From the IMG/VR virus record IMGVR_UViG_3300042311_000920, positions 1 through 64,000 of that record: DNA of 64,000 bases. The stretch is one strand, 5' to 3'. Position numbers and translations under genes: made by a program. This DNA comes from a virus. Of the stretch, positions 11,975-36,563 are shown piece by piece; positions within the stretch are counted from its first letter, which is position 1, and every line of letters starts with the position of its first letter. A model generated the notes under the pieces. It made no database searches and was not told the origin of the DNA. It saw only the letters and a list, made by a program, of their open reading frames with translations.

Positions 11975-12430
11975 ATGAAAAAACTTTTTTTATTACTGTT
12001 ATTGCCTACTTTGGCAATTTCTCAAAACGTTGGAATCGGAACGAAAAACCCAACGGCTAAACTAGAAGTTAATGGAAACGTAAAACTAAAAGCGTCAATA
12101 GGTACGGTAAACGATACTATTTTAGTTATTCGAAATGGCGAAATAATGAAAGTGCCTGCATCTTTTTATCAATACACACCGCCTACAAATTGCCCCTTAC
12201 TCGTTACGGGTCAAGGTCAAAGTAATGGTTACTATTTGAAATTTCAATCAAACGTCCCAATTGTTAACCCAAGCGCTACACTCGTAATTCAGGGCAAAAC
12301 TTTTCAAGCAGCGGGAACGTGGGTAAGTAGCAATACCTACTTCTACTCTTACACTAATACGAGTGGTTCTCCTTTAAATATTAACCAGCCTTTTACCGTT
12401 AATTTTACGGGGCAAATTTGTCAGTATTAA
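11975..12430 (+). CDS. Secreted protein with a Bacteroidota VGIGT-type motif
   Basis: Signal peptide, then QNVGIGTKNPTAKLEVNG. Its TAA is the TAAC at which cassette array 1 begins. Confidence 0.65.
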   Translation: MKKLFLLLLLPTLAISQNVGIGTKNPTAKLEVNGNVKLKASIGTVNDTILVIRNGEIMKVPASFYQYTPPTNCPLLVTGQGQSNGYYLKFQSNVPIVNPSATLVIQGKTFQAAGTWVSSNTYFYSYTNTSGSPLNINQPFTVNFTGQICQY

Positions 12431-12557
12431 CAGCAAAGTATATAAGCAGTAGCGGAGTGAGTAGCACAGCACGTAAGAGGGAAGGCTGGAATTTCAAATG
12501 TGCATTGTCATTTCGGTATAACCAAGCCCCGCCCGCTATTTCTTATATTTATTGTTA
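12428..12557 (+). repeat. att-like hairpin site 1
   Basis: TAAC..TATAAGCAGTAGCGG / CCGCTATTTCTTATA..TGTTA. Confidence 0.65.
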
Positions 12558-12645
12558 TAAAATCCTTTTAATGTTTTACAACGTTTGGTGCTTTCTGTCT
12601 GTAGCGGATTTCAGCACCAAGCCATTAAAACACAAAACCAAAATT

Positions 12646-12873
12646 ATGGAATCACTTGAAAAATTTATAGAAAAAAGAATGCAACAATCGGAATTTTCAG
12701 CAATGATGATCCCTAGATATTTAGAAAAGCCAAATGCTTTTTTAGGTTCAAAAAATTACACTTTGGAAAAAGCGGCAGAATTTAAAGCAGATGCTGAGAA
12801 ATGCAAAGCATTAATGATGTTTTTAAAAGAATATAATAAACTTTTGAAAACCAAGCGTAACAATGGAAACTAA
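12646..12873 (+). CDS. Cassette hypothetical protein
   Basis: MESLEKFIEK..., TAA overlaps the next TAAC. Confidence 0.55.
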   Translation: MESLEKFIEKRMQQSEFSAMMIPRYLEKPNAFLGSKNYTLEKAAEFKADAEKCKALMMFLKEYNKLLKTKRNNGN

Positions 12874-12986
12874 CGTTGAATTATTGTCGTCAGGTGGCGA
12901 CAAACACAAAACAAAATATAAAAATGAAAGTAATGACAAAACATTCAGAGAATACCCAAACCGCCACTTGCGACAATAATTTGTTA
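12871..12986 (+). repeat. att-like hairpin site
   Basis: TAAC GTTG AATTATTGTCGTCAGGTGGCG / CGCCACTTGCGACAATAATT TGTTA. Confidence 0.8.
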
Positions 12987-13256
12987 GTAGATTATCATCC
13001 TTTTGACCTTAAGCCTCAACATAGAGATTTAGGAGGAAAAATACCTTTTGTTCATAATAAGACAGGTTTTACAGAATTGTATCCAAAAGCTTATAGTTAT
13101 CCGGCCAAAAGATGCGAAAATTGCTTGTTTTATAGAGTAGAGAGAAGTACTACTCCTGTTGCTTACTATTGTCGAATTGGTATGTTTTCAAGTTATGTAC
13201 AGGCAACCGCAAAAAGAGATGAAGACAAACCAACTGAATGTCAGGTTTATTGGTAA
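12924..13256 (+). CDS. Cassette hypothetical protein (CxxC)
   Basis: ATG inside the hairpin; cassette ends GTTAGTAGAT / ATCTACTAAC. Confidence 0.55.
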   Translation: MKVMTKHSENTQTATCDNNLLVDYHPFDLKPQHRDLGGKIPFVHNKTGFTELYPKAYSYPAKRCENCLFYRVERSTTPVAYYCRIGMFSSYVQATAKRDEDKPTECQVYW

Positions 13257-13263
13257 TATCTAC

Positions 13264-13390
13264 TAACGGATTGCGGTTTTGTCTTGTTGCCGAAAATACA
13301 AGACCAATTTTAATTTAAAAAACTATGAATACAAGTACAAAAAATTCATCAAATGAAGCCGAAAATGGCAATAAGTCAAAACCGCTGTTA
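13264..13390 (+). repeat. att-like hairpin site
   Basis: TAAC GGATT GCGGTTTTGTCTTGTTGCC / GGCAATAAGTCAAAACCGC T GTTA. Confidence 0.85.
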
Positions 13391-13558
13391 TATGATGGCA
13401 TTTTCGTAGGGCAGAAAGTTATTGATGAAGATTGCGATAAAGGAACGATAACAGAAATAGAAAATATCTACAATGTTTATGTAAAATATGATAATGGCGG
13501 AAGTGGTATTTCTTGTTTAAATGGTTGTTGCAACGACAGGTTGTATGCTATCATATAA
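13325..13558 (+). CDS. Cassette hypothetical protein
   Basis: ATG inside the hairpin; cassette ends GTTATATGATGGCAT / ATGCTATCATATAAC. Confidence 0.55.
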   Translation: MNTSTKNSSNEAENGNKSKPLLYDGIFVGQKVIDEDCDKGTITEIENIYNVYVKYDNGGSGISCLNGCCNDRLYAII

Positions 13559-13643
13559 CGTTTTCGGGCTTGGCGAAGTGCCGCTAACCGAAACTTAATT
13601 TTTAGCACTAACTGTCCTGCGGCATTTTGCCAAACCCGTGTTA
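13556..13643 (+). repeat. att-like hairpin site
   Basis: TAAC GTTTT CGGGCTTGGCGAAGTGCCGC / GCGGCATTTTGCCAAACCCG T GTTA. Confidence 0.85.
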
Positions 13644-13694
13644 TGGGATAGTTTTAAAAACCTTTTAGGGTGGGCATTTAAAAACAAAATTAAA

Positions 13695-14090
13695 ATGGGA
13701 ATGTACACAGAATTAATTTTTGGTGCTGAATTAAAAAAAGACACACCAAACCAAGTAATTGAAGCCTTGAAATATATGATAGGTGAAACAAAAGAAAAGC
13801 CAAGTGATTTCCCGTTACCTGATGGAAGATGTGAATGGTTATTTCAAGGCGGTAGCTATTACTTCGCTATCAATAATTCAGTAACAAAAATGTGGCTTGA
13901 TGATATTGATAAGCAATGGCATATTAGCACACGTTCAAATATTAAGAATTACGAAAGTGAAATTGAAACATTTTTAGACTGGATAAAGCCATACATTGAC
14001 GGTGGTTCTGGTGGTAGAGATTTATATGCCATTACCATTTATGAAGAACAAGACACACCAACTCTTTATTATTTGCACGATGCTGATTAG
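13695..14090 (+). CDS. Cassette hypothetical protein
   Basis: MGMYTELIFG..., flanked by a terminal inverted repeat of about 26 bp. Confidence 0.65.
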   Translation: MGMYTELIFGAELKKDTPNQVIEALKYMIGETKEKPSDFPLPDGRCEWLFQGGSYYFAINNSVTKMWLDDIDKQWHISTRSNIKNYESEIETFLDWIKPYIDGGSGGRDLYAITIYEEQDTPTLYYLHDAD

Positions 14091-14126
14091 TACGGTGCGG
14101 TGGGAAAAGGTTTTTAAAATTTCCCA

Positions 14127-14194
14127 TAACGTTTTGCAGATACACGCTGTGAGCGTTGAATTGAGGGAGGGGAAATAGCGTGTATCTGCTGTTA
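14127..14194 (+). repeat. att-like hairpin site
   Basis: TAAC GTTTT GCAGATACACGCT / AGCGTGTATCTGC T GTTA. Confidence 0.85.
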
Positions 14195-14234
14195 TGCCTT
14201 CGTTGCGGATTATTAACTTAAAAACTAAAATATA

Positions 14235-14561
14235 ATGGATAAATTTCCAAAATTCATCATAGAAGATGATAAATTAATACTAATGAAAGTAACATATCAT
14301 AAAGAGATTGCTACTGATTTAACTAAAGTAAAAGGCGGTGGTTGGTTTAAATATTTGCAACATACCGATATGTTTGTTTTTAGCGGAGAAAGCCACGATT
14401 TTGGCAAAGCTAAATTTGAAGATATAAAACAATGTGTTGCAAATTGCCAAGTATATTCAGATAACCGCCTTTACCGAAATATCAGTAATAATCACAATTT
14501 TGGATATGATACAGGAACAGAAATTATCGAATTGAAAACGGAATGTAGCAATGAGGCATAA
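14235..14561 (+). CDS. Cassette hypothetical protein
   Basis: Cassette ends GTTATGCCT / AGGCATAAC. Confidence 0.65.
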   Translation: MDKFPKFIIEDDKLILMKVTYHKEIATDLTKVKGGGWFKYLQHTDMFVFSGESHDFGKAKFEDIKQCVANCQVYSDNRLYRNISNNHNFGYDTGTEIIELKTECSNEA

Positions 14562-14686
14562 CGTTTTGCAGCTATATGTCTGTTGCCAAAAGTAAAAAAC
14601 AATGCTTCGATTAAGCACAAATAATCACAAGTACAAAACAAATTATAAATCAAGCCGAATGTGGCAATAAGTCAAAACCGCTGTTA
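14559..14686 (+). repeat. att-like hairpin site with mismatched (chimeric) arms
   Basis: Left arm GCAGCTATATGTCTGTTGCC, right arm GGCAATAAGTCAAAACCGC. Confidence 0.7.
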
Positions 14687-14700
14687 TAAGTAGTACGGAT

Positions 14701-14841
14701 ATGAAAATCACAAAAGAATTTTTAGAAAAAATAAAAAAAGAAAACAATATATTGATATTTAAACTAGCGTCGATTGAGGGTAAAATACCAAAAGAAATAC
14801 AAGACACATTACCTAAAGAAGTAATTACAAACAGATTGTAG
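14701..14841 (+). CDS. Cassette small protein (46 aa)
   Basis: MKITKEFLEKIKKENNILIF... fills the unit GTTATAAGTAGTAC / GTATTACTTATAAC. Confidence 0.5.
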   Translation: MKITKEFLEKIKKENNILIFKLASIEGKIPKEIQDTLPKEVITNRL

Positions 14842-14850
14842 TATTACTTA

Positions 14851-14942
14851 TAACGTTTTGCAGGTAGGCGATAGTGCCGCTTACCACAAACTTTAAATCA
14901 AAGCACTCAGGCTCATAGCGGCATTTTGCCTACCTGCTGTTA
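14851..14942 (+). repeat. att-like hairpin site
   Basis: TAAC GTTTT GCAGGTAGGCGATAGTGCCGCT / AGCGGCATTTTGCCTACCTGC T GTTA. Confidence 0.85.
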
Positions 14943-14996
14943 GGTGTCTGTAAAAAATAAATTTAGCGTGGGCTTAAACTTTAAATAACAAACAAA

Positions 14997-15482
14997 ATGG
15001 AATTACAAGAATTAATTGAAAAGAACAAACTGCAATTACGCACACAAGAAGATATTTCTGCAAAGTTTGACGAATTGCAAAATTCAGGTGGCTTTATGGA
15101 TTTTCGACCAGAAGTATTGATTAACTTTTTATCATTTGAAAACGCAAAGCCACATTTGAAAGAAGACTACGTGAAAGAAGTTGAAGCAGGAACAAAGCAA
15201 TGGGAGCAACATACTACGGTTGAAAAGGCTGCCGAAGAGTTTTTGGACTATATGAAATTTGCTTGGGGTAAAGCCGAAGATGAACGTGGAATTTCAGCAA
15301 GCCGTTCAGTTCAAAAACTAGGAATGTGGCTTTGGATTATGAACCGAGATGATTTGCGTAGAGTTATTGAGGATGATGATTTGTACAATCCTTATGGCGC
15401 ACCTGCTTTAATTGAAGTTTGCAATCAAATGGGTATAAAAGTTCCAAACTCATTAATCGAATTTGCTAAGATAAAATGCTAA
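14997..15482 (+). CDS. Cassette hypothetical protein
   Basis: 161 aa; cassette ends GTTAGGTG / CACCTAAC. Confidence 0.65.
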   Translation: MELQELIEKNKLQLRTQEDISAKFDELQNSGGFMDFRPEVLINFLSFENAKPHLKEDYVKEVEAGTKQWEQHTTVEKAAEEFLDYMKFAWGKAEDERGISASRSVQKLGMWLWIMNRDDLRRVIEDDDLYNPYGAPALIEVCNQMGIKVPNSLIEFAKIKC

Positions 15483-15522
15483 TTATGTTGGGTGCGGTGG
15501 GAAATTTATTTTTTATTGCACC

Positions 15523-15649
15523 TAACATTCTCGTGGCTTTGTCTTGTTGCCGAAAATACAAGACCAACTTTAAATTTATCACTATGAAAAATGACACAAA
15601 ACCAGCATTACCCGAAGCCGAAAACGGCAATAAGTCAAAACCACTGTTA
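15523..15649 (+). repeat. att-like hairpin site (same family as 13264)
   Basis: GTGGCTTTGTCTTGTTGCCG / CGGCAATAAGTCAAAACCAC T GTTA. Confidence 0.85.
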
Positions 15650-16021
15650 CAAGCAGTGTTTTTCGCTCCTTATTTGCCTTATTCGGTAAAAATAGCTTAT
15701 GATTATTTTGGAGATACACAAGAAATAGCAACATTAATAGGTGTTGAAGATAGAAATGGAGAAACTAGATTGCAAATTAATACTGGCGGAAGTGCTTTGT
15801 TAAAATATTGCAAACTTGTTTTAAAACCTTTTTCAGATTATACTGAAATATTAGAAATAACAGATGAAATGAATGATTATGAAATCCAAATGATTGAAGA
15901 TAATCCTGATTTAATAAAACGACTACCTTATGATGTGGTTGAAAAAATGTTTAAAAATCACATTGATGTTTTCGGACTTATTAATTTCGGTTTAGCCGTT
16001 TCAATTCACGATGTTGTGTAA
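15584..16021 (+). CDS. Cassette hypothetical phage protein
   Basis: ATG inside the hairpin; cassette ends GTTACAAGCAGTGTT / AACATTGCTTGTAAC. Confidence 0.6.
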   Translation: MKNDTKPALPEAENGNKSKPLLQAVFFAPYLPYSVKIAYDYFGDTQEIATLIGVEDRNGETRLQINTGGSALLKYCKLVLKPFSDYTEILEITDEMNDYEIQMIEDNPDLIKRLPYDVVEKMFKNHIDVFGLINFGLAVSIHDVV

Positions 16022-16030
16022 CATTGCTTG

Positions 16031-16159
16031 TAACGTTCCGCAACTACACGTCTGTTGCGTAAAAGTACAAAATTACCTTTCAGTTTAACACGGAATTGAA
16101 AGGTACAAAAACATCACTAAATTAATCACAAATCTAGCAATAGCGTGTAATTGCTGTTA
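16031..16159 (+). repeat. att-like hairpin site
   Basis: GCAACTACACGTCTGTTGC / GCAATAGCGTGTAATTGC T GTTA. Confidence 0.8.
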
Positions 16160-16174
16160 TCAAATCGGTTTATT

Positions 16175-16501
16175 ATGAAAAGATTACCTGTTATACACGA
16201 TGTAAAAGTTTGGAGTAGATTTTGGCAAAATCTAACTATCGAAGAAAAAAACTTTGAATTAAGAAAATTAGATAGAGATTATCAAGTAAATGATTATTTA
16301 CGATTGAATTTCTATTCAGAAGATTTAAAAGAAATTATAGAAACTGAAAAGCCTAAAATTGCTAAAATTCAATACATTTTAAAAGATGCTGAAATGTTTG
16401 GATTGCAAAAAGATTACGGAATATTATCCTTAAAATATTATAGTTCTTTTTCTTTTCAAGAAAGGGTAGAGTTTTTGAAAACGCAAACCCAAACTGTTTG
16501 A
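16175..16501 (+). CDS. Cassette DUF3850/ASCH-like protein
   Basis: HDVK...KNFELRKLDRDYQVNDYLRL motif. Confidence 0.7.
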   Translation: MKRLPVIHDVKVWSRFWQNLTIEEKNFELRKLDRDYQVNDYLRLNFYSEDLKEIIETEKPKIAKIQYILKDAEMFGLQKDYGILSLKYYSSFSFQERVEFLKTQTQTV

Positions 16502-16627
16502 TAACGGCTACGCATATACGCAGTAGCGGATTTAAAACACAAAAGTTTAATTAACAAATAAAAGTAAAATAGAATGAAAAAGTTTAAAATTAGCACAGTA
16601 GCCGCTATTGCCGTATATGCGATGTTA
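16502..16627 (+). repeat. att-like hairpin site
   Basis: CGCATATACGCAGTAGCGG / CCGCTATTGCCGTATATGCG AT GTTA. Confidence 0.85.
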
Positions 16628-16915
16628 GCGGTTGTTTTTACTTCTTGTGATGATGCAGGGGTAACTTCAAAAAGATTAAATGGCGATGAACAAAATTTGC
16701 CTGATGAACTGAAAGGACTAAAAATTTATTCAGTTTCGACAGGTAATGGGAATTATGTAAAAGTTGCCGTTTTAGACGGTAAGATAAACTCAACAACTTA
16801 CCAAGTAGGTAAAGTTCAAGAATCGACAGTAATAGTAAATAAACAAAACGGCAAACTTATAGAGGTTAGCCAAATTTTGGTTGAAAACGACAGCGTGATT
16901 GTCTGCCGAAAATAA
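16574..16915 (+). CDS. Cassette lipoprotein
   Basis: MKKFKISTVAAIAVYAMLAVVFTSC lipoprotein signal. Confidence 0.65.
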   Translation: MKKFKISTVAAIAVYAMLAVVFTSCDDAGVTSKRLNGDEQNLPDELKGLKIYSVSTGNGNYVKVAVLDGKINSTTYQVGKVQESTVIVNKQNGKLIEVSQILVENDSVIVCRK

Positions 16916-16919
16916 CCGC

Positions 16920-17038
16920 TAACGGTTCTCGGCTTTGTCGTCGTTGCGACTTATGAAAACTAATATTAATATTTTAAACTAAACGAAATGAAAAACGATA
17001 ATTCAACTAAACAAAGCAATGCGTCAAAACCGATGTTA
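16920..17038 (+). repeat. att-like hairpin site
   Basis: TCGGCTTTGTCGTCGTTGC / GCAATGCGTCAAAACCGA T GTTA. Confidence 0.8.
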
Positions 17039-17272
17039 GCGGAAGGCTGGATTTCTGTTAACGATAGAAGACCAAATGAAAATCAAACAGTATGGTGTTA
17101 TTCAGAAAACACATTTAACATATTTGTAGGAGTTTATATTTACCTTACAAATGAAGGTTGGTTTTGGGCTTCAAGTAACGGTTGCTTTTATATTGAAGAG
17201 GGAAAAATAATAACAGAATGTGAGATTGATGATTTTGATGTTACACATTGGTTTCCCGCTCCAGTTCTGTAG
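16988..17272 (+). CDS. Cassette DUF551-like protein
   Basis: WISVNDRRP...VTHW motif; ATG inside the hairpin. Confidence 0.7.
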   Translation: MKNDNSTKQSNASKPMLAEGWISVNDRRPNENQTVWCYSENTFNIFVGVYIYLTNEGWFWASSNGCFYIEEGKIITECEIDDFDVTHWFPAPVL

Positions 17273-17280
17273 CTTTCCGC

Positions 17281-17407
17281 TAACGTTTCTCGGCTTTGCT
17301 TTGTTGCGGAAAAGTAAGCCAAAACTTTAGATTTAAAAACAAAATTAACAAATACAAACCAAACATTCAGTTAAGCCTAAAACCGCAATAGAGCAAAACC
17401 GATGTTA
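17281..17407 (+). repeat. att-like hairpin site
   Basis: TCGGCTTTGCTTTGTTGCGG / CCGCAATAGAGCAAAACCGA T GTTA. Confidence 0.85.
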
Positions 17408-17499
17408 TAAGTAGCTTTTATTATGGATGAAATAATTTTATGTTTAGGAATGATTGTTGGATTAATATTATTTATAATTAGTATAAAACAAGAGTAAAA

Positions 17500-17772
17500 A
17501 TGGAAAGTAAAATAGAATATTTTAATAGATACAGTGATACGCATTTGCCTGATAAAATGAATAGATGGGCAAGAATAGCTGTATTTAAAAACATTAGAAT
17601 TGCTTGGATAAGTAAACATAAGATTAAAGAGCAAGATACATTTTGTGTAACGTGCCATTTTCCAACTATGCAAAATGATACAGCAAACGAAAGTAAAGTT
17701 TTCTTTAGTTTAGAAGATGCAAAAGATTTTGTTTCTGAAAGATGGAATTTTTTTTTAACCGCAGTTTCTTAA
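17500..17772 (+). CDS. Cassette hypothetical protein
   Basis: 90 aa, preceded in the same unit by a 24-codon hydrophobic ORF at 17423-17497. Confidence 0.6.
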   Translation: MESKIEYFNRYSDTHLPDKMNRWARIAVFKNIRIAWISKHKIKEQDTFCVTCHFPTMQNDTANESKVFFSLEDAKDFVSERWNFFLTAVS

Positions 17773-17781
17773 AGTTACTTA

Positions 17782-17854
17782 TAACGTTCCCACGATAGGG
17801 GCTGTTTGCCTATTTACAAAGTTGCTTTCGGCAAATAGCACTTATCGTGTGTTG
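17782..17854 (+). repeat. att-like hairpin site
   Basis: CACGATAGGGGCTGTTTGCC / GGCAAATAGCACTTATCGTG T GTTG. Confidence 0.85.
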
Positions 17855-17903
17855 TGCGATGGTGCTTTTAAATACAAATATTAACCAATTAAATTACAAT
17901 AAA

Positions 17904-18119
17904 ATGTCAAAACGAAAATACTCAAAAATGTCGGACAAAGTTGAAATAACACATTATGAATGTACTAATAGAAAGTGCAAGTGGCAAGGAACTAATAAAC
18001 AAAAAGGAACTCAATATTTAGATAATGGATTTACGGAATTGATTTGCCCTAAATGCTGTAATAATGAATTTTACGGATTACTTCCGTCTTATGTAGATTC
18101 TATTTCTGCGGTTTCGTAG
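17904..18119 (+). CDS. Cassette zinc-ribbon-like protein
   Basis: CxxxxC...CPKC; cassette ends GTTGTGCGA / TCGCACAAC. Confidence 0.55.
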   Translation: MSKRKYSKMSDKVEITHYECTNRKCKWQGTNKQKGTQYLDNGFTELICPKCCNNEFYGLLPSYVDSISAVS

Positions 18120-18128
18120 CATCTCGCA

Positions 18129-18254
18129 CAACGTATCGGTGCTATACGATGTGGCGGATTTTCGGCAGAAAGCCCAATACGAAGCACCACAGTTGAATTA
18201 AATAAAAATGTTTAATCGAAGCACGTCAGCCGCCATATTGTATAGCACTTGTTA
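18129..18254 (+). repeat. att-like hairpin site
   Basis: CAAC GTATC GGTGCTATACGATGTGGCGG / CCGCCATATTGTATAGCACT T GTTA. Confidence 0.85.
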
Positions 18255-18285
18255 GCGGATGCCGTTTCTTCACAACAATTTTAAA

Positions 18286-18522
18286 ATGGAATATAAAGCA
18301 CAAGAACTCAAAAAAGATTTAATAACAAAGCGTTGCATTGATAACGATATGACAATGGATGAAGCCTGTAAAGAAATAGGAATTTCAAAAGCCACTTTGT
18401 CAAGGTTGGAAAAGTCTAAACTGCCAGATGTTGAAACATTAGGTAAGGTTTGCACTTGGTTAGGAACTGAACCAAATAAATACTTTGTCATTATTCGTAA
18501 GCGTCAAGACGGTTTCCGCTAA
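18286..18522 (+). CDS. Cassette XRE-family HTH regulator
   Basis: TMDEACKEIGISKATLSRLEK...PDVETL. Confidence 0.8.
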   Translation: MEYKAQELKKDLITKRCIDNDMTMDEACKEIGISKATLSRLEKSKLPDVETLGKVCTWLGTEPNKYFVIIRKRQDGFR

Positions 18523-18644
18523 CCGTTCGGGGCTTGTAGCAGTAGGGGATTAGAAGCACTACTGTTCAACCTACCACAAAAGCTGATTAGAAGTACACAG
18601 CTTAATTAAAGCACTTCTGCCCCTATTGCTACAAACCCTTGTTA
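18520..18644 (+). repeat. att-like hairpin site
   Basis: GGGCTTGTAGCAGTAGGGG / CCCCTATTGCTACAAACCC TT GTTA. Confidence 0.85.
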
Positions 18645-18694
18645 GCAGAAGTGGCGGTTAATTTACAAGGGTGTCAATTTTAAAACGTAAAAAA

Positions 18695-18997
18695 ATGATT
18701 AAAAATTCAGAACAACCAATCAGTCCAATGCCTTACCAAAATCAAGATGGCTCTATTCAACACGATGTTTATTTTGGATTAACTAAAAGAGAACATATTG
18801 CTATTGAAGCAATGAAGGGCTTTTTAGCAAACCCATCTGAAACAGAAGTAAGTTCAACTTATGTATTGGAAGCAATCGGGTTGCCAAAAGAAACTAAGTA
18901 TTCATTTGATGAGCATTACACAAAGTATGTTTCACAAATAGCAGTCAAATATGCCGATGCCTTATTAAAGGAATTGTCAATCGGAGACGGTCGGTAG
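18695..18997 (+). CDS. Cassette hypothetical phage protein
   Basis: GLTKREHIAIEAMKG...AVKYADALLKEL, a motif common in phage proteins. Confidence 0.65.
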   Translation: MIKNSEQPISPMPYQNQDGSIQHDVYFGLTKREHIAIEAMKGFLANPSETEVSSTYVLEAIGLPKETKYSFDEHYTKYVSQIAVKYADALLKELSIGDGR

Positions 18998-19007
18998 CCA
19001 TTTCTGC

Positions 19008-19131
19008 TAACGGCTACGGCTATGTGCAGTAGCGGATTTAAAACACTAAACTTTAAATATAGAACGAATGATGATAGTAGAACAAATTTTGAATAACGCA
19101 CCGAACCCGCTATTGCATATAGCCGATGTTA
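19008..19131 (+). repeat. att-like hairpin site
   Basis: CGGCTATGTGCAGTAGCGG / CCGCTATTGCATATAGCCG AT GTTA. Confidence 0.85.
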
Positions 19132-19859
19132 GTGGCGGTGCTTTGTTCAATGCTGATTGTATGGATATTTTACCTCTTATTCCTAATAAATCGGTTCAAC
19201 TTATTTTGGCTGATTTGCCTTACGGAACAACAAGTTGTGCGTGGGATTGTATTATTCCATTTGACAAACTTTGGGCTGAATATGGTAGAATAATAAAAGA
19301 CAATGGTGCAATAGTTTTAACGGCTTCACAACCATTTACAAGTGCCTTAGTAAACAGTAAAATTGAATGGTTTAAATATGCTTTAGTTTGGGAAAAAGAA
19401 AGACCAAGCAACCCTGCACACGCAAAGATTAGATTTATGAAATGGCACGAAGATATTTTGATTTTTTCACCTAATAAAGAAAAGTTTAATCCACAAAAAG
19501 AAAAACGATTAGAGCAAAATAAAAGGAATAACAAACAAGGTGTATTTCATAAATCTGATGCTTATGGAGAACAAACAATACCACAAGGCGATGGGATGGC
19601 TGATGAAAAGTATTTGAGTAGCATATTAAAGGTAAATGTTGAAAGAGGGTTGCACCCAACGCAAAAGCCGTTAAAACTATTTAAAACATTGATTAGTGCC
19701 TTTACGGATGAAAATGATTATGTACTTGATAATACAATGGGAGTAGGCACAACTTGTTTAGGAGCAAAAGAGTTGAACCGTTCCTTTATTGGAATTGAAA
19801 AAGAGGTAAAATATTATGATTTGGCAGTTGGTCGGGTGTTCGGTCAGCATTGCCACTAA
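19068..19859 (+). CDS. Cassette beta-class N6A/N4C DNA methyltransferase
   Basis: DLPY, HPTQKP and DNTMGVGTT motifs. Confidence 0.9.
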   Translation: MMIVEQILNNAPNPLLHIADVSGGALFNADCMDILPLIPNKSVQLILADLPYGTTSCAWDCIIPFDKLWAEYGRIIKDNGAIVLTASQPFTSALVNSKIEWFKYALVWEKERPSNPAHAKIRFMKWHEDILIFSPNKEKFNPQKEKRLEQNKRNNKQGVFHKSDAYGEQTIPQGDGMADEKYLSSILKVNVERGLHPTQKPLKLFKTLISAFTDENDYVLDNTMGVGTTCLGAKELNRSFIGIEKEVKYYDLAVGRVFGQHCH

Positions 19860-19943
19860 CGGTTTCGGGCTTGGCGAAGGTGGGCTTGTAGGATGCTCAA
19901 TTTTAGCAGAATGTTTCTGCCCACTTTTGCCAAACCCGTGTTA
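19857..19943 (+). repeat. att-like hairpin site
   Basis: CGGGCTTGGCGAAGGTGGGC / GCCCACTTTTGCCAAACCCG T GTTA. Confidence 0.85.
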
Positions 19944-20013
19944 TGTGTAGTTGCGGTTGTTTATCAGGAACTTAAATTGAAAACGAATAAAAAAGAATTA
20001 GAAAAAAGAAGCG

Positions 20014-20715
20014 ATGGAATTAAATAAAATATATAACGAAGATTGCATTGAAGGTATGAAGAAAATACCATCTGCGAGTATTGATATGGTTCTAACTGAC
20101 CCACCATATACATCTCCAACTGTTCACGCATTCGGAAGGCAAAAAGTAAACCGATTATCAGATTTAGCAATACAAGAATTTTACTTTGCTGAAATCAAAA
20201 AGGAATGGGAACGAATACTGAAACCCAATGCACCTGTTTTGATTTTCTGCGATGATATTTATAGTGCTGTTTTGATGGGTTTGTTTTACGAATGGCAACA
20301 AAAGAATTTAGTTATTTGGGATAAGGGTAGAATTGGAATGGGAAACCCGTTTAGAAAACAGCACGAACTTGTATTTTATGCAAACAGAGGAAGTATTGAA
20401 TTGAATAAAACCAATATGAGCCACATTCCTACTGTAATAAAAGAAACGCTAACAAAAGAACATCACGGAGCAGAAAAGCCAGTAAAACTATTGATGAAAC
20501 TGATTGACGGACTTACAAAAGAAAATGCAACAGTTTTGGATTGCTTTATGGGAAGTGGCTCAACTGCGATTGCTTGTTTAGAAACGAAAAGAAACTATAT
20601 CGGTTTTGAACTTGATAAAAGCTATTATGAAACTTCACAAAATCGTATTTCTTCCTTGTGCGGTGGGCTTTTTTCTAATTCTTTTTCAACGGAAAGTTCA
20701 ATTGAAACGGGATGA
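20014..20715 (+). CDS. Cassette beta-class N6A/N4C DNA methyltransferase
   Basis: DPPY, HGAEKP and DCFMGSGST motifs. Confidence 0.9.
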   Translation: MELNKIYNEDCIEGMKKIPSASIDMVLTDPPYTSPTVHAFGRQKVNRLSDLAIQEFYFAEIKKEWERILKPNAPVLIFCDDIYSAVLMGLFYEWQQKNLVIWDKGRIGMGNPFRKQHELVFYANRGSIELNKTNMSHIPTVIKETLTKEHHGAEKPVKLLMKLIDGLTKENATVLDCFMGSGSTAIACLETKRNYIGFELDKSYYETSQNRISSLCGGLFSNSFSTESSIETG

Positions 20716-20728
20716 TAGCAATTACACA

Positions 20729-20777
20729 TAACGTTTTGCAGATTGGCGGTCGTTTTAATGCCGCCAATGTGCTGTTA
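20729..20777 (+). repeat. Minimal att-like hairpin site (49 bp)
   Basis: TAAC GTTTT GCAGATTGGCGG / CCGCCAATGTGC T GTTA. Confidence 0.8.
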
Positions 20778-20839
20778 CAGGTAGTAGGGATTTCTACCAC
20801 AAAACTTAATTAGAAGTACAAACAAAAAAGAATTTAAAA

Positions 20840-21715
20840 ATGAGCGAGGGCAAAAAAAGAAAAATTAAAGTATTATCATTATTCGATGGTATGAGTTGCG
20901 GACAAATAGCTTTAAACAAGCAAGGGATTGAATATGATGAATATTTTGCTTCTGAAATTGACAAAGAAGCTATAAAGGTAACTATGAAAAACTACCCAAA
21001 CACAAAACAATTAGGTAGTATTACGGAACTAAAAGGAATTGATTTGCCAAAAATAGATTTGCTATTTGGCGGAAGCCCTTGTCAAAGTTTTAGTAGAGCA
21101 GGAGATAACAGTGGATTTGACGGAAGTAGTAAATTGTTTTGGGAATTTGTAAGAGTTTTGAATGAAGTAGAACCTACTTACTTTTTACTTGAAAATGTAA
21201 TTATGAAAAAAGAATGGGAAGATGTAATTACGGAAGCGTTAGGAGTGAAACCTATTGAGATTACAAGTGCTAAATTTGTACCACAAGCAAGACGAAGATT
21301 ATATTGGACTAATATACCCAATGTAACGCAACCGAAACAATCTGAATACACTGTTTTAGACTTTATTGATGGTGATGGGTTTCCGACAAGTTGCGGAATT
21401 GATAGAGTTTTTAAACGCAAAGAAATATTTAATACTTTGACGGCAACTTATTGGAAAGGAATTAGAGGAAGTTCAAGACCAGCAGTAAGTATTAGAGAAG
21501 GATTTTTAGATGCGGACAGAGAAGCACACCGTATGCTAACACCAACAGAATGTGAACGACTACAAACAGTACCTATTGGATATACGGATTGTGTTGCTAA
21601 AACAAATAGATATAAGATGCTTGGTAATGGTTGGACAGTTGATGTGATTGCTCATATTTTTTCTTTTTTAAAGGAGGGGAAATTTTTAAATTCTTTTTCT
21701 GACGAAAATGTTTAA
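20840..21715 (+). CDS. Cassette C5-cytosine DNA methyltransferase
   Basis: LFDGMSCG, GGSPCQSFS, ENV, QARRRLYW, ECERLQ and LGNGW motifs. Confidence 0.9.
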   Translation: MSEGKKRKIKVLSLFDGMSCGQIALNKQGIEYDEYFASEIDKEAIKVTMKNYPNTKQLGSITELKGIDLPKIDLLFGGSPCQSFSRAGDNSGFDGSSKLFWEFVRVLNEVEPTYFLLENVIMKKEWEDVITEALGVKPIEITSAKFVPQARRRLYWTNIPNVTQPKQSEYTVLDFIDGDGFPTSCGIDRVFKRKEIFNTLTATYWKGIRGSSRPAVSIREGFLDADREAHRMLTPTECERLQTVPIGYTDCVAKTNRYKMLGNGWTVDVIAHIFSFLKEGKFLNSFSDENV

Positions 21716-21741
21716 TCAAAGCACTTCACCGCTATTACCTG

Positions 21742-21861
21742 TAACGGTTCTCGGCTTGGCGAAGTTGCCGAACACAAAACTTCATTAGAATTACAAATGT
21801 TTAAATCAAAGATAGAATGTCAAACGAAGCACAAAACGGCAATTTTGCCAAACCGATGTTA
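21742..21861 (+). repeat. att-like hairpin site
   Basis: TCGGCTTGGCGAAGTTGCCG / CGGCAATTTTGCCAAACCGA T GTTA. Confidence 0.85.
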
Positions 21862-22461
21862 GCACCAGTACGGGTTTTAAATCTATACGCTGGAATTGGA
21901 GGAAACCGAAAACATTGGGAAAATGTAGAAGTAACTGCAATAGAATACAACGAAGAAATTGCAAATGTTTACAAGAAATTACATCCAAACGATAATGTGA
22001 TAGTTACTGATGCACACGATTATTTGGCTAAAAATTGGAGAGAGTTTGATTTTATATGGAGTTCGCCACCATGTCAAAGTCATAGCAAAGTAAGAATGAT
22101 GGCAAGTAAAAGCGGAAGTTATGATGCTGTAATGCCTGATATGAAATTGTGGAGTGAAATAATTTTTTTACAGAACTTTACTAAAAACACAGATATAAAG
22201 TTTGTAGTTGAAAATGTAAAGCCTTATTACGAACCATTTGTAAAACCAACTGCAAAACTTGGTAGGCATTTATTTTGGGCAAACTTTGAAATACCTGAAG
22301 CCGAAATAAAAGATGGATTAACCCACAATGAAAGAGGAAGTTCTGAAAAAGGTTATTTTGACTTACGAGAATATAAAATAAAACACAGAAAAGACCAAAT
22401 AATTCGTAATTGCGTTGACCCAAATGTAGGACAATATGTTCTCGGTTGTGCAGTTTCGTAG
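21817..22461 (+). CDS. Cassette short C5-methyltransferase-like protein
   Basis: LYAGIGG, SPPCQ and ENV motifs; ATG inside the hairpin. Confidence 0.8.
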   Translation: MSNEAQNGNFAKPMLAPVRVLNLYAGIGGNRKHWENVEVTAIEYNEEIANVYKKLHPNDNVIVTDAHDYLAKNWREFDFIWSSPPCQSHSKVRMMASKSGSYDAVMPDMKLWSEIIFLQNFTKNTDIKFVVENVKPYYEPFVKPTAKLGRHLFWANFEIPEAEIKDGLTHNERGSSEKGYFDLREYKIKHRKDQIIRNCVDPNVGQYVLGCAVS

Positions 22462-22470
22462 TATTGGTGC

Positions 22471-22494
22471 TAACTAATCGCTAATCGCTATAAA
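22471..22494. other. Conserved array-terminal site (attI-like candidate)
   Basis: TAACTAATCGCTAATCGCTATAAA, 20/24 identical to 34783-34806. Confidence 0.6.
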
Positions 22495-22505
22495 ACCAAA
22501 TCAAA

Positions 22506-23205: not shown

Positions 23206-23427
23206 ATGGCACAAAAAAAGACACTCTCAGAAGAGTTTGCAACATTCCTAAAAGAAAAACGAATGCGACTAGGAATGACACAAGCCCAACTTTCAGAATT
23301 AATTTACGGCGATCCTAAACGTGCCGAGTACATCGGACGAATCGAAAACGGTAAAAGAGAAATATCTGTTTCAACTATGGGGTTGATGCTTGAAAAAATG
23401 AACGCTTGGGTAGAATTTATTGAATAA
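23206..23427 (+). CDS. XRE-family HTH regulator
   Basis: LKEKRMRLGMTQAQLSE...IGRIENGKREIS. Confidence 0.8.
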   Translation: MAQKKTLSEEFATFLKEKRMRLGMTQAQLSELIYGDPKRAEYIGRIENGKREISVSTMGLMLEKMNAWVEFIE

Positions 23428-23471
23428 CTGTACAAAAATAAATAGTCGGGAAAACTATTAAAAACTAAAAT

Positions 23472-24770
23472 ATGGCAACAATTAAATTTACCGTGCGAGG
23501 GAAGAAAAACCCGTCGCCCATCTACATCCGTTTTGCAGAGGGAAAAAATATAGACCTTCACGAAAAATCTGGACTTTATGTAAATCCAATTTTTTGGGAC
23601 CAGAAAAAGCAACAGATCCGGAAAGTTCTCGAAGTAGCAAACAAAGACGATATCAATTCCAATCTTCGGAAACTTGAAATTTATTTGATTGATGAATTTA
23701 ATCAATCATTTATGACCGGCCAAGTAATAAATAAGCAATGGCTGTTGCAATCTATCCAAAAATTCTTTAATCGCCCTAAAAACGAAGAAAAACTACAAAA
23801 TTTAAAGCATCACATTTATTTTTCAGATTACGCCCAACACTGGATTGATAACAAGGCTAAAAAATTCAAAGTTGCCGCCAATAAATATATGGACGAAACA
23901 ACGATAGGACATTATCAGCAAGTTTTGGATAACTTCAAAGATTTCGAAGGAAAAAACAAAGTAAAACTATGCGATTTAAGCAACTTAAAATTAGACGAGT
24001 TCTCTTTATACCTTTCAGATACTAAAAGCTATTCAGAATCTACTAGCAAGCGTAAAGTTGGACGCGTTAAGTTCTTTTGCGCACGTGCCGAAAGCGACAA
24101 TTTAGAAGTCAACAAACAATACAAAGAAAGAGTTTTCGTCAAAGAGCAAGAAATCGAATACAAGCAGCCTTATTTAAACGAAGATGAAATTAACAACATT
24201 TTTAAATTGAAACTAGAACCTAATTGTCCAATGGATCATGTTCGAGATAATTTAATAATTGGATTATGGACTGGCTTAAGGGTGTCAGACTTTCTAACGA
24301 GATTAAACGTCTCCAATATTCAAGATGGTTTTATCAAAATAAAAACAATGAAAACAAAAACATTTGTCAATATTCCGATACACTCACAAGTAGCTTTTAT
24401 TTTGAATAAAAGAAACGGACAACTACCTAATAAAATATCAGAGCAAAAGTTTAACGACCACATAAAAACCTTGACGCAGATAGTAGGTATTGATGATTTA
24501 ATGATTGGAGGAGTGATGAAAGTTGACGAAAAAACTAAAGTTAAAAGGAAAGTAATTGATACATATAAAAAGTGGGAGTTAATGACCTCTCACGTTGGGC
24601 GCAGATCATTTGCTACAAATTTGTTCGGAAAAGTATCTAATAAAACCATTTGTGACGTATGCGGCTGGTCAAATGAAGATATGCTTTTTGCTTACAACAA
24701 AACCACGAACATGGAATCAGCGAATGTACTTAAGGATTACTGGGATAAAAAATACGAATCAAAAATATAA
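23472..24770 (+). CDS. int: Tyrosine recombinase/integrase of Bacteroidota type (arm-binding, SAM-like and catalytic domains)
   Basis: TGLRVSD (R), KTMKT (K), SHVGRRSFAT (HxxR), CGWS (W), FAY (Y). Confidence 0.9.
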   Translation: MATIKFTVRGKKNPSPIYIRFAEGKNIDLHEKSGLYVNPIFWDQKKQQIRKVLEVANKDDINSNLRKLEIYLIDEFNQSFMTGQVINKQWLLQSIQKFFNRPKNEEKLQNLKHHIYFSDYAQHWIDNKAKKFKVAANKYMDETTIGHYQQVLDNFKDFEGKNKVKLCDLSNLKLDEFSLYLSDTKSYSESTSKRKVGRVKFFCARAESDNLEVNKQYKERVFVKEQEIEYKQPYLNEDEINNIFKLKLEPNCPMDHVRDNLIIGLWTGLRVSDFLTRLNVSNIQDGFIKIKTMKTKTFVNIPIHSQVAFILNKRNGQLPNKISEQKFNDHIKTLTQIVGIDDLMIGGVMKVDEKTKVKRKVIDTYKKWELMTSHVGRRSFATNLFGKVSNKTICDVCGWSNEDMLFAYNKTTNMESANVLKDYWDKKYESKI

Positions 24771-29943: not shown

Positions 29944-30842
29944 GCACAATATCACAAGACCAAGAATTAGTTTCTCAGGAATTAAACAACCAAGTTTTAG
30001 CAGTGCTAAGCAACAAGGTAGAAGGGTTCCAAAAAGCATTTATAATGGCAAGCGCTATTCAAGTCCTAAAAGACAGACTGTCTCCTGAATTCATGAAGCC
30101 AATTATGGCTTTACAAGGTTCAAATCTTGGATTTAAAACTGACAAAGACAAATCTAGCGGTTATCCGGAAGTAGAAGTAAAAGCGTGTTTAATTGACGCA
30201 GTGCTTTTAGGGCTACAACCCACGGGAAACGAATTTAACATTATAGCGGGTAATATGTACCCTACTAGACAAGGTTTTGGGTCATTATTGAAAAAGATAA
30301 ATGGATTGAAATACTCAATTTCGTATTCAAATCCAATCTTCACTCAAGACAAGTCTTCTGCAACGTGCGTAACCACAATCAAATGGGAATTAAACGGAGA
30401 GAAAAACCAACAAGAAGTTGAGTTCGCGATTAAATCAAATGCCTACGCTACCGCTGATGCTATTTTAGGAAAAGCAGAAAGGAAAGCCAGAAGATGGCTT
30501 TTTAATACGGTTGAAGGAACTGATATTCCTGACGGTGACGTTACTGATATCCCACACACGGAAGTAAAATCAACCATTAACCCCGAAAGAATCGCCAAGG
30601 AAAAAGAACGTGAGCGTGTTATAAAACACATCACTAATTCCAAAAACGTTTCCGAACTAGAACGTTGTGTTTCGAAAATAGACAAAGACGACACTGAATT
30701 AGTAGAACAATACGTTACCAAGCACGTAGAACTTTCAACGTCCCTAGATGAACTTCAGAAATGCTTGTCATTAATTCCAGAAGACGATCACAACCTTACT
30801 ATTCTGTACGCTGATAAGAAACGAGAACTTGCAAAATCGTAA
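29931..30842 (+). CDS. Putative RecT/Redbeta-like single-strand annealing protein
   Basis: AVLLGLQP...EFNII...Y motif and position in the recombination module. Confidence 0.55.
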   Translation: MAELSTISQDQELVSQELNNQVLAVLSNKVEGFQKAFIMASAIQVLKDRLSPEFMKPIMALQGSNLGFKTDKDKSSGYPEVEVKACLIDAVLLGLQPTGNEFNIIAGNMYPTRQGFGSLLKKINGLKYSISYSNPIFTQDKSSATCVTTIKWELNGEKNQQEVEFAIKSNAYATADAILGKAERKARRWLFNTVEGTDIPDGDVTDIPHTEVKSTINPERIAKEKERERVIKHITNSKNVSELERCVSKIDKDDTELVEQYVTKHVELSTSLDELQKCLSLIPEDDHNLTILYADKKRELAKS

Positions 30843-30845
30843 TCA

Positions 30846-31289
30846 ATGAATTTCGCTTTAAAAACCTGCAAAGTTTCAGGAGCTCTATGGAAGCAATACA
30901 ATAGTCTTCAAAAATGTCCTTGCGTAATTTGCGTAAAAAGACGTGAAAAGCGACCAAATCTAAAACTGAAATCGCTATACAAACCTATCAATCGGGTAAG
31001 TAAAAAAAGGCAAGTTCAGGAACTGCAATACGCAGCCGACCGCATCATATTCCTAGCAAAACCCGAAAATAAAATTTGTCCAATAACAGGACAACCAACA
31101 ACAGAAATACACCACGTCCGTAAAAGACGTGGTTTTGCTGATGAATGGGCAAGGCTAAATAACATTCCATTACTTTTAGACCAACGTTATTGGCTTGCTG
31201 TTTCCAGAATTGGTCATCAAAAAATCGAAGAAAATCCAACGTGGGCGTACGAAAAAGGTTACTCCCAAAAAAACAACACAACATTATGA
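30846..31289 (+). CDS. HNH-like/Nin-region nuclease-fold protein
   Basis: CPITGQPTTEIHH...WLAVSRIGHQKIE. Confidence 0.55.
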   Translation: MNFALKTCKVSGALWKQYNSLQKCPCVICVKRREKRPNLKLKSLYKPINRVSKKRQVQELQYAADRIIFLAKPENKICPITGQPTTEIHHVRKRRGFADEWARLNNIPLLLDQRYWLAVSRIGHQKIEENPTWAYEKGYSQKNNTTL

Positions 31290-31446
31290 AAAACAATCTA
31301 TCATTTTTAGAGTTCAGTCGCTACTTATACGGCTACAACGTTTACAGTAAAAAAACAGAACAAGTAATCCCAAGGTATCAATTGTATTGGGCAGGCTACA
31401 CGATCGAGAGAATCAAACAGAATTTTAACCTTAAGCCAAGAGTAAA

Positions 31447-31626
31447 ATGACAACTTACGGACAAATAGTTGACGGTAAAAGAATAACACTAAATGACTTT
31501 GAAAAACAAGTTCGAGAAGGCGTTTCTGGCATCGTAACTAACCTAACATCAGCGGAAATAGCCAAACGTTACCGTAAAGGCGAATCCGTGGATAATGCAG
31601 TGAGTTATTTTATAATGCACAAGTAA
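31447..31626 (+). CDS. Small hypothetical protein (59 aa)
   Basis: MTTYGQIVDGKR...; its TAA is the TAAC at which array 2 begins. Confidence 0.5.
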   Translation: MTTYGQIVDGKRITLNDFEKQVREGVSGIVTNLTSAEIAKRYRKGESVDNAVSYFIMHK

Positions 31627-32025: not shown

Positions 32026-32031
32026 CGGCTA

Positions 32032-36561: not shown

Positions 36562-36563
36562 CC

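Follow-up and report, generated by a model that had tools for sequence, protein, structure and literature searches.

Arrays of attC-like hairpins and short genes in a lake-water virus: probable integron-type cassettes with genes on the folding strand

Two arrays of one hairpin family

The IMG/VR virus record IMGVR_UViG_3300042311_000920 comes from lake water, is 73,439 bp long and is rated complete. Its bases 1–64000, a stretch of 34 % G+C referred to here as the window, contain two + strand arrays, at 12428–22474 and 31624–34786, in which short genes alternate with hairpins that run from TAAC to GTTA. All 24 hairpins, 19 in array 1 and five in array 2, belong to one family, lie on the + strand in the same orientation throughout both arrays and follow one another at spacings of less than 1.3 kb. 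At least six of the 24 cassettes encode DNA methyltransferases, a cargo that suggests a shuffled store of anti-restriction and accessory genes. DNA near-identical to the window is also present in lake-water metagenome runs. An earlier note, made from the sequence alone, had described the arrays as the reverse of classical integron cassettes, with a mobile unit consisting of a hairpin and the gene downstream of it. We consider it likely that both arrays are phage-borne, integron-type cassette arrays of Bacteroidota attC-like hairpins, with each gene on the folding ('bottom') strand.

Alignment of 23 of the hairpins gave a 24-pair structure consisting of an outer helix, TAAC(G)/(T)GTTA, an internal loop beside the outer box, with 5 nucleotides (nt) in its 5′ arm and 1 nt in its 3′ arm, and a 19-pair inner stem. 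The AAC and GTT boxes were invariant in all 23 sites. Paired cells made up 89.0 % of the structure compared with 66.6 % in shuffles, and changes on both sides were found in 18 pairs, all within the inner stem (18 of 19). None of 500 shuffles matched the observed percentage paired or the covariation score, and two of 500 matched the number of pairs with both-side changes. Sliding the partner columns by 1–3 positions reduced pairing to 32–49 %, and a mismatch was frequent at the column pair 15–128 of the alignment. Conserved G.T pairs at two positions (20 of 23 and 19 of 23 sites) pair only on the + strand, which folds more stably in 16 of the 24 sites (p=0.004).

A covariance model built from this alignment matched 24 sites in the window, at 12428–21861 and 31624–34156, including the site at 14559–14686, which was outside the training set. 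No matches were obtained at E≤0.1 elsewhere in the 64-kb window or in 50 unrelated viral loci. A scan by fold energy was non-specific, with approximately 70 hits per strand, and was superseded by a pairing rule and then by the covariance model; minus-strand hits of the crude pairing rule in loci L039–L044 were not confirmed by the model.

Both arrays begin at the TAA(C) stop of a backbone gene, and in both the last gene leads into a bare TAAC (AAC at 22472 and 34784), after which neither the model search nor the sequence itself gave a further hairpin. These boundaries are as first described. It had also been stated that many stop codons are the TAA of the next TAAC, which is correct for six of the 24 cassettes and for the two backbone genes; two other stops abut TAAC and the rest lie 4–40 nt upstream. 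Approximately the same 20–25 nt follow the bare TAAC of both window arrays (from 22475 and 34787) and of the array in the relative L003, and similar ends were found in four more, otherwise different viral contigs (L216, L240, L258 and L268). This right-end motif is a candidate insertion site, or alternatively a conserved backbone sequence. The predicted 'empty' backbone, in which the TAAC of gene 11975–12430 would be joined directly to the right-end motif, was not found, and gene order in L003 differs.

The family is not confined to viruses. A subfamily pattern matched at least 120 bacterial genome stretches, nearly all from Bacteroidota and their relatives, including Flavobacterium, Chryseobacterium, Pedobacter, Chitinophagaceae and Ignavibacteria. 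In the first 80 of these stretches the covariance model gave 240 matches, often with 6–11 sites per 8 kb on one strand. Long arrays of the family were seen among loci L068–L187 from Bacteroidota and related genomes, for example in L129, L133, L135, L083, L081 and L141. This suggests that integron-like arrays are far commoner in Bacteroidota than standard tools report, and standard attC models may miss this hairpin family.

Cassette ends, crossover side and gene strand

The ends of the cassettes are marked by complementary flanks. Complementarity was scored between the 12 nt past the GTT of one site and the 12 nt preceding the AAC of the site that follows. On average, 9.3 of 12 positions matched over 19 comparisons in array 1 and 9.2 of 12 over five comparisons in array 2, against a background of 4.7–4.8 for the two flanks of the same hairpin and 4.2–4.9 for all other pairs. 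The last gene of each array is also followed by the complementary flank and then by the bare TAAC. One variant pair follows the same rule, the GTTG end of site 13 being matched by the CAAC start of site 14, with the usual TAAC and GTTA as their other partners. A hairpin joined to its own distal flank was predicted to be more stable than the array form for all 24 sites (mean −24.8 versus −17.8 kcal/mol). Complementary flanks across a gene are the signature by which the boundaries of integron cassettes were defined. Both possible polarities predict this result, and the flank comparison therefore cannot assign a hairpin to a gene.

Assignment was made from rearrangements between related phages. 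Related arrays occur in close IMG/VR relatives (L003–L007), and cultured Baltic Flavobacterium siphophages (Muminvirus, Lillamyvirus and Hattifnattvirus) carry 10–15 sites each, with many shared cassettes in differing orders. A megablast search of phage records with the whole array gave two short matches only. The breakpoint dataset consisted of 161 sites from 15 phage sources, after removal of L004 (identical to L003) and of one site cut at the end of L005. Seven elements were distinguished in each site region, namely the left arm, the loop, the right arm and a further two elements on either side of these; every element was clustered, and the number of neighbour combinations beyond perfect linkage was taken as the recombinant excess. 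This excess was 21 at the TAAC junction, between the upstream element and the left arm, and 2 at the GTTA junction, between the right arm and the downstream element. Elsewhere it was 0 between the two upstream elements, 4 between left arm and loop, 0 between loop and right arm, and 1 between the two downstream elements. Other clustering thresholds gave 16–21 at the TAAC junction and at most 6 at every other junction.

Individual alignments place the break at the same position, with identity beginning or ending exactly at TAAC(G). One identical core and gene was found after four different upstream genes, and one upstream gene precedes up to five different cores. Backbone gene 11975–12430 (~88 % DNA identity) precedes three unrelated cores in the window, L005 and L007, and the core of window site 1 recurs elsewhere in L005 with identity starting at AAC. 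Four metagenome runs were used as contigs, mostly short pieces that break at repeats; one joint was used, and loose ends at site borders may stem from cores of other phages. That joint, in a contig of run X5, connects 13554 to 14558 with 10 shared letters, as expected if two cassettes were lost from TAAC to TAAC, and being a single contig it gives weak support. Crossover thus falls inside TAAC(G) or at its edge, 5′ of the hairpin on the coding strand, so that each hairpin travels together with the gene that follows it. This bears out the mobile unit and the AAC-side crossover originally proposed, for which the suggested check had been whether a hairpin is found with the same downstream or the same upstream gene across phages. 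A cassette accordingly comprises the C of TAAC, the core, GTTA, a flank of ~12 nt, the gene, the complementary flank of ~12 nt and the TAA of the next TAAC.

Gene strand was then compared with model strand in the two groups of genomes. In viral contigs, 130 of 157 segments were on the model strand, five were opposite and 22 were ambiguous; by majority, 68 of 71 arrays were on the same strand, one was opposite and two were ties. The reverse was found in bacterial contigs among the matches listed, where 110 of 131 segments were opposite, 13 were on the same strand and eight were ambiguous, and where 48 of 54 arrays were opposite by majority, with five the same and one tie. With covariance-model coordinates, 84 of 100 bacterial segments were opposite, again among the matches listed, while the window together with four phage isolates had 56 of 69 segments on the model strand and none opposite. 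The bacterial arrays are classical, with a recombinase, an insertion site and then each gene followed by its site, and the phage arrays share this geometry with the genes on the other strand. The description 'reverse of classical cassettes' is hence right for the orientation of the genes relative to the site, genes being opposite in Bacteroidota, and wrong if extended to the direction of the site with respect to the recombinase and insertion end, which is not reversed. According to the 'bottom strand' rule of integrons, crossover occurs at the 5′ AAC of the folding strand, which matches the model-strand crossover seen here.

An array in a bacterial contig of Flavobacterium caseinilyticum (L105, 304001–312000) was phage-style, with the genes of all eight segments on the hairpin strand and short cassettes, and the contig is probably a prophage.

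Start codons within the hairpins

In nine of the 24 cassettes the first in-frame ATG lies inside the hairpin, as had been noted for the open reading frames (ORFs) at 12924, 13325, 15584, 16574, 16988, 19068, 21817, 31705 and 33188. The exception among these nine is 15584, where the frame is also open further upstream. The ORFs cross GTT in all three frames, six as xxG|TTA, two with GTT as a codon and one as xGT. The recurring N-terminal peptides described previously are present in the cassette ORFs and would simply be the conserved right arm translated in its commonest frame. It had been claimed that the ORF at 21817 has no other ATG upstream of its methyltransferase motif, but a second in-frame ATG is present at 21856–21858, overlapping GTT and still inside the hairpin. 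The suggested coupling of initiation to the preceding stop gains no support here; the upstream stop codon and the loop ATG are separated by roughly 50–100 nt.

Five of these ORFs (12924, 13325, 16574, 16988 and 21817) have no plausible start outside the hairpin, the next ATG being absent or 197–236 nt further on. Domain positions are informative for two of them. The DUF551 domain of 16988 starts at residue 20, three residues past GTT, and the C5-methylase profile (PF00145, from profile position 2) starts at residue 18–19 of 21817, four residues past GTT. In the paralogue at 34171, which starts at an ATG of its own, the PF00145 match begins at residue 1. By eye, the N-terminus of 16574 resembles a signal peptide of the lipoprotein type, and its hydrophobic core would be encoded by the right arm, GTT and the flank.

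Across distinct, full-length sites of the family, an ORF whose first ATG lies in the hairpin and which continues for at least 50 codons from GTT was found at 136 of 238 viral sites compared with 12 of 185 bacterial sites. The scan was restricted to full-length nhmmer matches, in which short-loop sites are under-represented. Two of the three frames were used almost exclusively at the 136 viral sites (64 and 65 ORFs, with seven in the third), and loop A content was 50 % for viral sites versus 37 % for bacterial sites. These sequence statistics support the view that hairpin-borne start codons may be general across the viral contigs. A start inside the hairpin would be stable because, under the phage polarity, a gene and its preceding hairpin are never separated by recombination.

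An alternative is that the polarity is as described and the loop ATGs are unused, translation starting at or after GTT and the N-terminal extensions being read-through artefacts of an A-rich, stop-poor loop. Four of the nine window ORFs (15584, 19068, 31705 and 33188) have a possible GTG, TTG or ATG start 8–36 nt after GTT, homologous methylases have their own start just past the hairpin (34171 compared with 21817, and 20840 compared with a gene of L005), and the extensions are of low complexity and differ in frame. This alternative does not account for the five ORFs that have no start outside the hairpin, one of which (16988) has none of the three start codons past GTT, or for the signal peptide of 16574, which by eye is complete only from the loop ATG. 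It also leaves the difference between viral and bacterial sites in ATG-opened frames through GTT, and even without the loop ATGs many starts, such as 21856, would still be inside the hairpin. We therefore regard it as unlikely.

Transcription of the cassettes was considered from the same regions. No T-run terminators were seen at the hairpins, and the motif TAnnTTTG, the Bacteroidetes −7 (host-type) promoter motif, was observed 0 times against 1.7 expected in the 24 hairpin regions plus 50 nt. As no such promoter motif is present in the hairpins, expression would be most simply explained by read-through from upstream.

Recombinases, rival readings and known systems

A recombinase is found beside arrays of this family in other genomes. 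In Chryseobacterium sp. FH1 the array end consists of an opposite-strand cassette gene, a bare TAAC, ~120 nt and a gene for a tyrosine recombinase of 371 amino acids (aa). This enzyme scored 207.7 bits with the NCBIfam tyrosine recombinase/integron integrase model (cut-off 220), 180.9 bits with integrase_gron (cut-off 265; no match to the middle of the model), 176.1 bits with XerC (cut-off 335.15) and 174.5 bits with XerD (cut-off 329.6). Its scores are below both sets of cut-offs, and it is therefore called Xer/IntI-like and no more. In loci holding both an array and a homologue of this enzyme, the homologue was at the bare-TAAC end, as viewed on the model strand, in 11 of 12 bacterial and all eight viral cases; in seven of the eight viral loci the recombinase gene is on the same strand as the sites and within 0.3–1.7 kb. 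Among the 11 bacterial loci with a recombinase at the array end, the gene points toward the array in five (L188, L189, L111, L080 and L127) and away from it in six, and both integrase orientations therefore occur with this site family.

One of the viral loci (L220, 481–2546) lies on the same IMG/VR contig as L003, a close relative of the window's phage with 94 % protein identity in the backbone gene. This contig encodes a 267-aa Xer/IntI-like recombinase, whose gene starts 45 nt past the bare TAAC of a methylase cassette on the same strand, the cassette itself starting in the hairpin loop. The arrangement looks like a complete phage 'integron' with inverted cassettes. Xer/IntI-like recombinases also occur in the seven other viral loci. 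The enzyme is present in some phages of the window's group and absent from the window's own phage, where the host or a co-infecting phage would probably supply it.

The window has a tyrosine recombinase gene at 23472–24770, ~1 kb to the right of array 1, which encodes 432 aa with an arm-binding domain and is preceded by a helix-turn-helix (HTH) repressor-like gene. The HTH gene and the arm-type integrase (23206–24770) are likely to form a lysogeny module. A blastp comparison of this integrase with the array-linked enzyme gave no significant similarity (E 0.55; 20.6 % identity in 252 aligned residues). The integrase was considered as the cassette recombinase and judged unlikely, as it is arm-type, has the HTH neighbour and has a sole other viral homologue (L227) that is on the other side and strand. 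No HUH/IS200-type gene was met, although no search aimed at HUH/IS200 transposition was made.

Several points weigh against an integron-type interpretation. No integron-type integrase was found in the phage, PF00589 finding one gene in the 73-kb record, and none of five array-bearing Flavobacterium phages has a PF00589 match. The array-linked enzymes fall below the curated cut-offs of the integron-integrase and Xer models, and the asymmetric 5 nt × 1 nt internal loop is presumably not the extrahelical-base pattern of canonical attC sites. The flanks of the opening unit of array 1 are not complementary (3 of 12). The TAAC excess derives mostly from the Flavobacterium isolates (17), with 2 from the window's own group, and the breakpoint set contains four chimeric cores, to which window site 6 can be added. 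Site 5 of L058 and site 6 of L060 share an upstream gene and core, and the downstream gene differs. To these are added the possible later starts of four of the nine ORFs, described above.

Some of these points would fit hairpins that are repeated regulatory or structural elements, similar to terminators, REP elements or the PeSLs of T4-type phages, shuffled by homologous recombination or template switching. The lack of a suitable recombinase in the window's phage and in the five tested Flavobacterium phages is as expected for such elements, as are the chimeric cores; core families that are 70–90 % alike could support homologous exchange, and hairpins transcribed with their genes could have a role as RNA. 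Breakpoints are, however, concentrated in a shared 5–6 nt and not spread over the longer similar arms, and flank complementarity across a gene is sensible only for a circular or single-stranded intermediate. The same family adjoins Xer/IntI-like recombinases in bacteria and in the eight viral loci, and neither T-run terminators nor the −7 motif were seen. This explanation appears quite improbable. That the hairpin instead belongs to the upstream gene, with crossover at GTT and with the loop-start ORFs as order-dependent fusions, is scarcely credible: upstream-gene stops do lie in or just before TAAC as in classical cassettes, the pair of sites in L058 and L060 retains the upstream gene and core, and the extra bases of the left arm were first taken for the R″–L″ side of canonical attC, but the breakpoint excess is at TAAC (21 versus 2), an identical core and gene follows four different upstream genes, arrays open with a full hairpin and close with a bare TAAC, the recombinase sits at the bare-TAAC end, and rearrangements that broke the ORFs would make it difficult to retain hairpin starts at 136 of 238 viral sites.

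For integron-type cassettes on the folding strand, the following mechanism is proposed. An excised cassette would be circular, its two flanks pairing with each other to lengthen the stem. Insertion would take place at the array's 3′ end, into the simple TAAC site, through an Xer/IntI-like tyrosine recombinase obtained from the host or from a related phage infecting the same cell. With the site ahead of its own gene, a start codon can be accommodated in the A-rich loop, and translation would read through the right arm and GTT, unbroken by recombination. The arrays would allow anti-restriction and other accessory genes to be stored and shuffled, and read-through would transcribe these genes together with the neighbouring phage genes.

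Comparison with sedentary chromosomal integrons, such as those of Vibrio, shows shared and distinct features. In both, the sites are imperfect hairpins with ...AAC/GTT... boxes and a variable loop, are similar within an array, and leave the half of the outer box beyond the crossover to travel with the neighbouring cassette; crossover is one-sided, at the 5′ AAC of the better-folding strand, and a simple insertion site lies beside a tyrosine recombinase at one array end. Unlike those of chromosomal integrons, the phage genes are on the folding strand and point toward the insertion site, each with its site as a 5′ leader. The outer stem is ~14–18 bp here compared with 7, and the 5 nt × 1 nt internal loop appears to replace the canonical arrangement of a central spacer of roughly 5/6 nt and two extrahelical bases on one arm; the linked recombinases are below the integron-integrase cut-off. 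Inverted-integrase integrons, found in Treponema, Chlorobi and similar organisms, have a flipped integrase gene with classical cassettes. In some Bacteroidota arrays the integrase and cassette genes point the same way, as in those integrons, but in the present arrangement it is the cassette genes that are inverted with respect to the site, and the recombinase lies downstream of the array. PeSLs are mobile regulatory cassettes with an early promoter that are exchanged by homology. They resemble the arrays in having a stem-loop ahead of each small accessory gene, in a hyperplastic phage region whose units are shuffled between phages, and they differ in that the arrays have no host-type promoter motif, breakpoints confined to TAAC and flanks that pair across the gene.

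Integron-type arrays in phages have been described previously. The available text of Qi et al. 2023 (PMC9892861) reports 17 phage attC clusters without an integrase (CALINs, defined as at least two attC sites predicted with standard attC models) in virulent and temperate phages, some with methylases, finds that IntI1 recombined five of six phage attC sites tested, and puts forward the idea of host integrases acting on phage cassettes. The present arrays are like these CALINs in being integrase-free attC clusters of phages with methyltransferase cargo. The main text of that paper mentions no Flavobacterium phage, inverted gene polarity or start codons within sites. No match to the hairpin model was found in 30000–48689 of Polaribacter phage P12002L, the stretch that holds its methylase genes, and the experimentally tested phage attC sites are therefore not tied to this hairpin family. 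The available text of the paper describing isolation of the Baltic phages (PMC7077304) mentions methyltransferase differences and no hairpins or palindromes, and that of IntegronFinder 2.0 (PMC9024848) reports hardly any integrons in Bacteroidetes. A full-text literature search, with subscription journals outside its scope, gave no description of the inverted-cassette arrangement. What is new is the systematic inversion of integron-type cassettes in phages; integron-type arrays themselves are known.

Integrons are the textbook platform for gene capture and reshuffling, in which the site follows the gene and transcription comes from a promoter at the insertion end. In phages the same kind of site would be used the other way round, systematically, and would have been taken over as a translation start. 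This would mean that two cassette pools share a recombination chemistry and are not interchangeable for expression, that phages swap methylases and small accessory genes singly, and that a recombination site is selected at once as folded DNA strand, mRNA leader and coding sequence. It is evenly balanced, in our judgement, whether Bacteroidota phages run a mirror-image integron system of their own, with a separate cassette pool in which attC is the 5′ leader and often the start, with insertion at the distal end of the operon and a small Xer/IntI-like recombinase that is encoded or borrowed, and serving as a quickly shuffled store of anti-restriction methylases and other counter-defence genes. 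If true, it would be the phage counterpart of the integrons in which bacteria store defence systems. These predictions are directly testable in the cultured Flavobacterium siphophages from the Baltic, with their 10–15 sites and host strains LMO6 and LMO9.

The sites, cassette genes and array ends of the window are listed in Table 1.

Table 1. Hairpin sites, cassette genes and array ends of the window in order of position (own start, start codon outside the hairpin)
Feature	Coordinates	Strand	Remarks
Site 1	12428–12557	+	53.6 bits; begins at TAA stop of backbone gene 11975–12430
Degenerate left half-site	12580–12651	+	nhmmer partial match, model positions 2–76
Site 2	12871–12986	+	69.0 bits
ORF, 110 aa	12924–13256	+	Start in site 2 loop; next ATG 197 nt past GTT; no Pfam family
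Site 3	13264–13390	+	105.3 bits
ORF, 77 aa	13325–13558	+	Start in site 3 loop; no ATG past GTT; stop is TAA of next TAAC
Site 4	13556–13643	+	73.5 bits
ORF, 131 aa	13695–14090	+	Own start, 53 nt past GTT
Site 5 (short loop)	14127–14194	+	51.6 bits
ORF, 108 aa	14235–14561	+	Own start
Site 6	14559–14686	+	72.4 bits; not in training set; chimeric core, arms of different site types
ORF, 46 aa	14701–14841	+	Own start
Site 7	14851–14942	+	66.4 bits
ORF, 161 aa	14997–15482	+	Own start
Site 8	15523–15649	+	88.1 bits
ORF, 145 aa	15584–16021	+	ATG in site 8 loop; alternative GTG 8 nt past GTT
Site 9	16031–16159	+	88.9 bits; 90.6 % identity to site in Flavobacterium phage snusmum9-1
ORF, 108 aa, DUF3850	16175–16501	+	Own start
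Site 10	16502–16627	+	94.0 bits
ORF, 113 aa	16574–16915	+	Start in site 10 loop; no ATG past GTT
Site 11	16920–17038	+	85.5 bits
ORF, 94 aa, DUF551	16988–17272	+	Start inside site 11 (ATG 16988 or 17033); no ATG/GTG/TTG past GTT
Site 12	17281–17407	+	115.4 bits
ORF, 90 aa	17500–17772	+	Own start
Site 13	17782–17854	+	43.5 bits; 3′ end GTTG, matching CAAC start of site 14
ORF, 86 aa	17859–18119	+	ATG 6 nt past GTT
Site 14	18129–18254	+	90.4 bits
ORF, 87 aa, HTH_3	18259–18522	+	ATG 6 nt past GTT
Site 15	18520–18644	+	83.9 bits
ORF, 100 aa	18695–18997	+	Own start
Site 16	19008–19131	+	97.2 bits
N6/N4 DNA methyltransferase	19068–19859	+	PF01555, 105 bits; ATG in site 16 loop; alternative TTG 19143
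Site 17	19857–19943	+	62.3 bits
N6/N4 DNA methyltransferase	20014–20715	+	PF01555, 107.3 bits; own start
Site 18 (minimal loop)	20729–20777	+	41.3 bits
C5 cytosine DNA methyltransferase	20840–21715	+	PF00145, 137.9 bits; own start
Site 19	21742–21861	+	112.0 bits
C5-methyltransferase-like ORF	21817–22461	+	Start inside site 19 (ATG 21817 or 21856); next ATG 236 nt further
Bare TAAC and conserved simple site, right end of array 1	22471–22500	+	Candidate attI-like insertion site
Site 20	31624–31753	+	79.9 bits; begins at TAA stop of backbone gene 31447–31626
ORF, 106 aa	31705–32025	+	ATG in site 20 loop; alternative ATG 31774
Site 21	32158–32286	+	80.4 bits
ORF, 80 aa	32314–32556	+	Own start
Site 22	32557–32682	+	94.8 bits
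ORF, 141 aa	32682–33107	+	ATG begins at final A of GTTA
Site 23	33125–33252	+	83.5 bits
N6/N4 DNA methyltransferase	33188–34021	+	PF01555, 158.1 bits; ATG in site 23 loop; alternative TTG 33266
Site 24	34031–34156	+	106.7 bits
C5-methyltransferase-like ORF	34171–34785	+	PF00145 from residue 1; own start; stop is TAA of bare TAAC
Bare TAAC and simple site, right end of array 2	34783–34812	+	Same motif as at right end of array 1

Some regions of the arrays depart from the regular arrangement. Between 12557 and 12651, site 1 is followed by a 29-nt 'empty cassette' with inverted-repeat ends and then by a left half-site only. The cassette of ORF 13695–14090 has long inverted terminal flanks of ~30–35 nt (13644–13680 and 14092–14127), and contigs of runs X3–X5 skip the gene body between them. 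The arms of site 6 pair poorly near the base, and the site looks like the product of an exchange within the core. A NUMOD4/HNH homing-endonuclease-like gene is located at 35246–36025, ~460 nt past the right end of array 2. Within array 2, between sites 20 and 21 (32026–32158), a second sequence that resembles a flank and ends in TAAC lies near 32030. It lacks a hairpin, precedes a 47-aa ORF (32102–32245) and may be a junction whose core has been lost.

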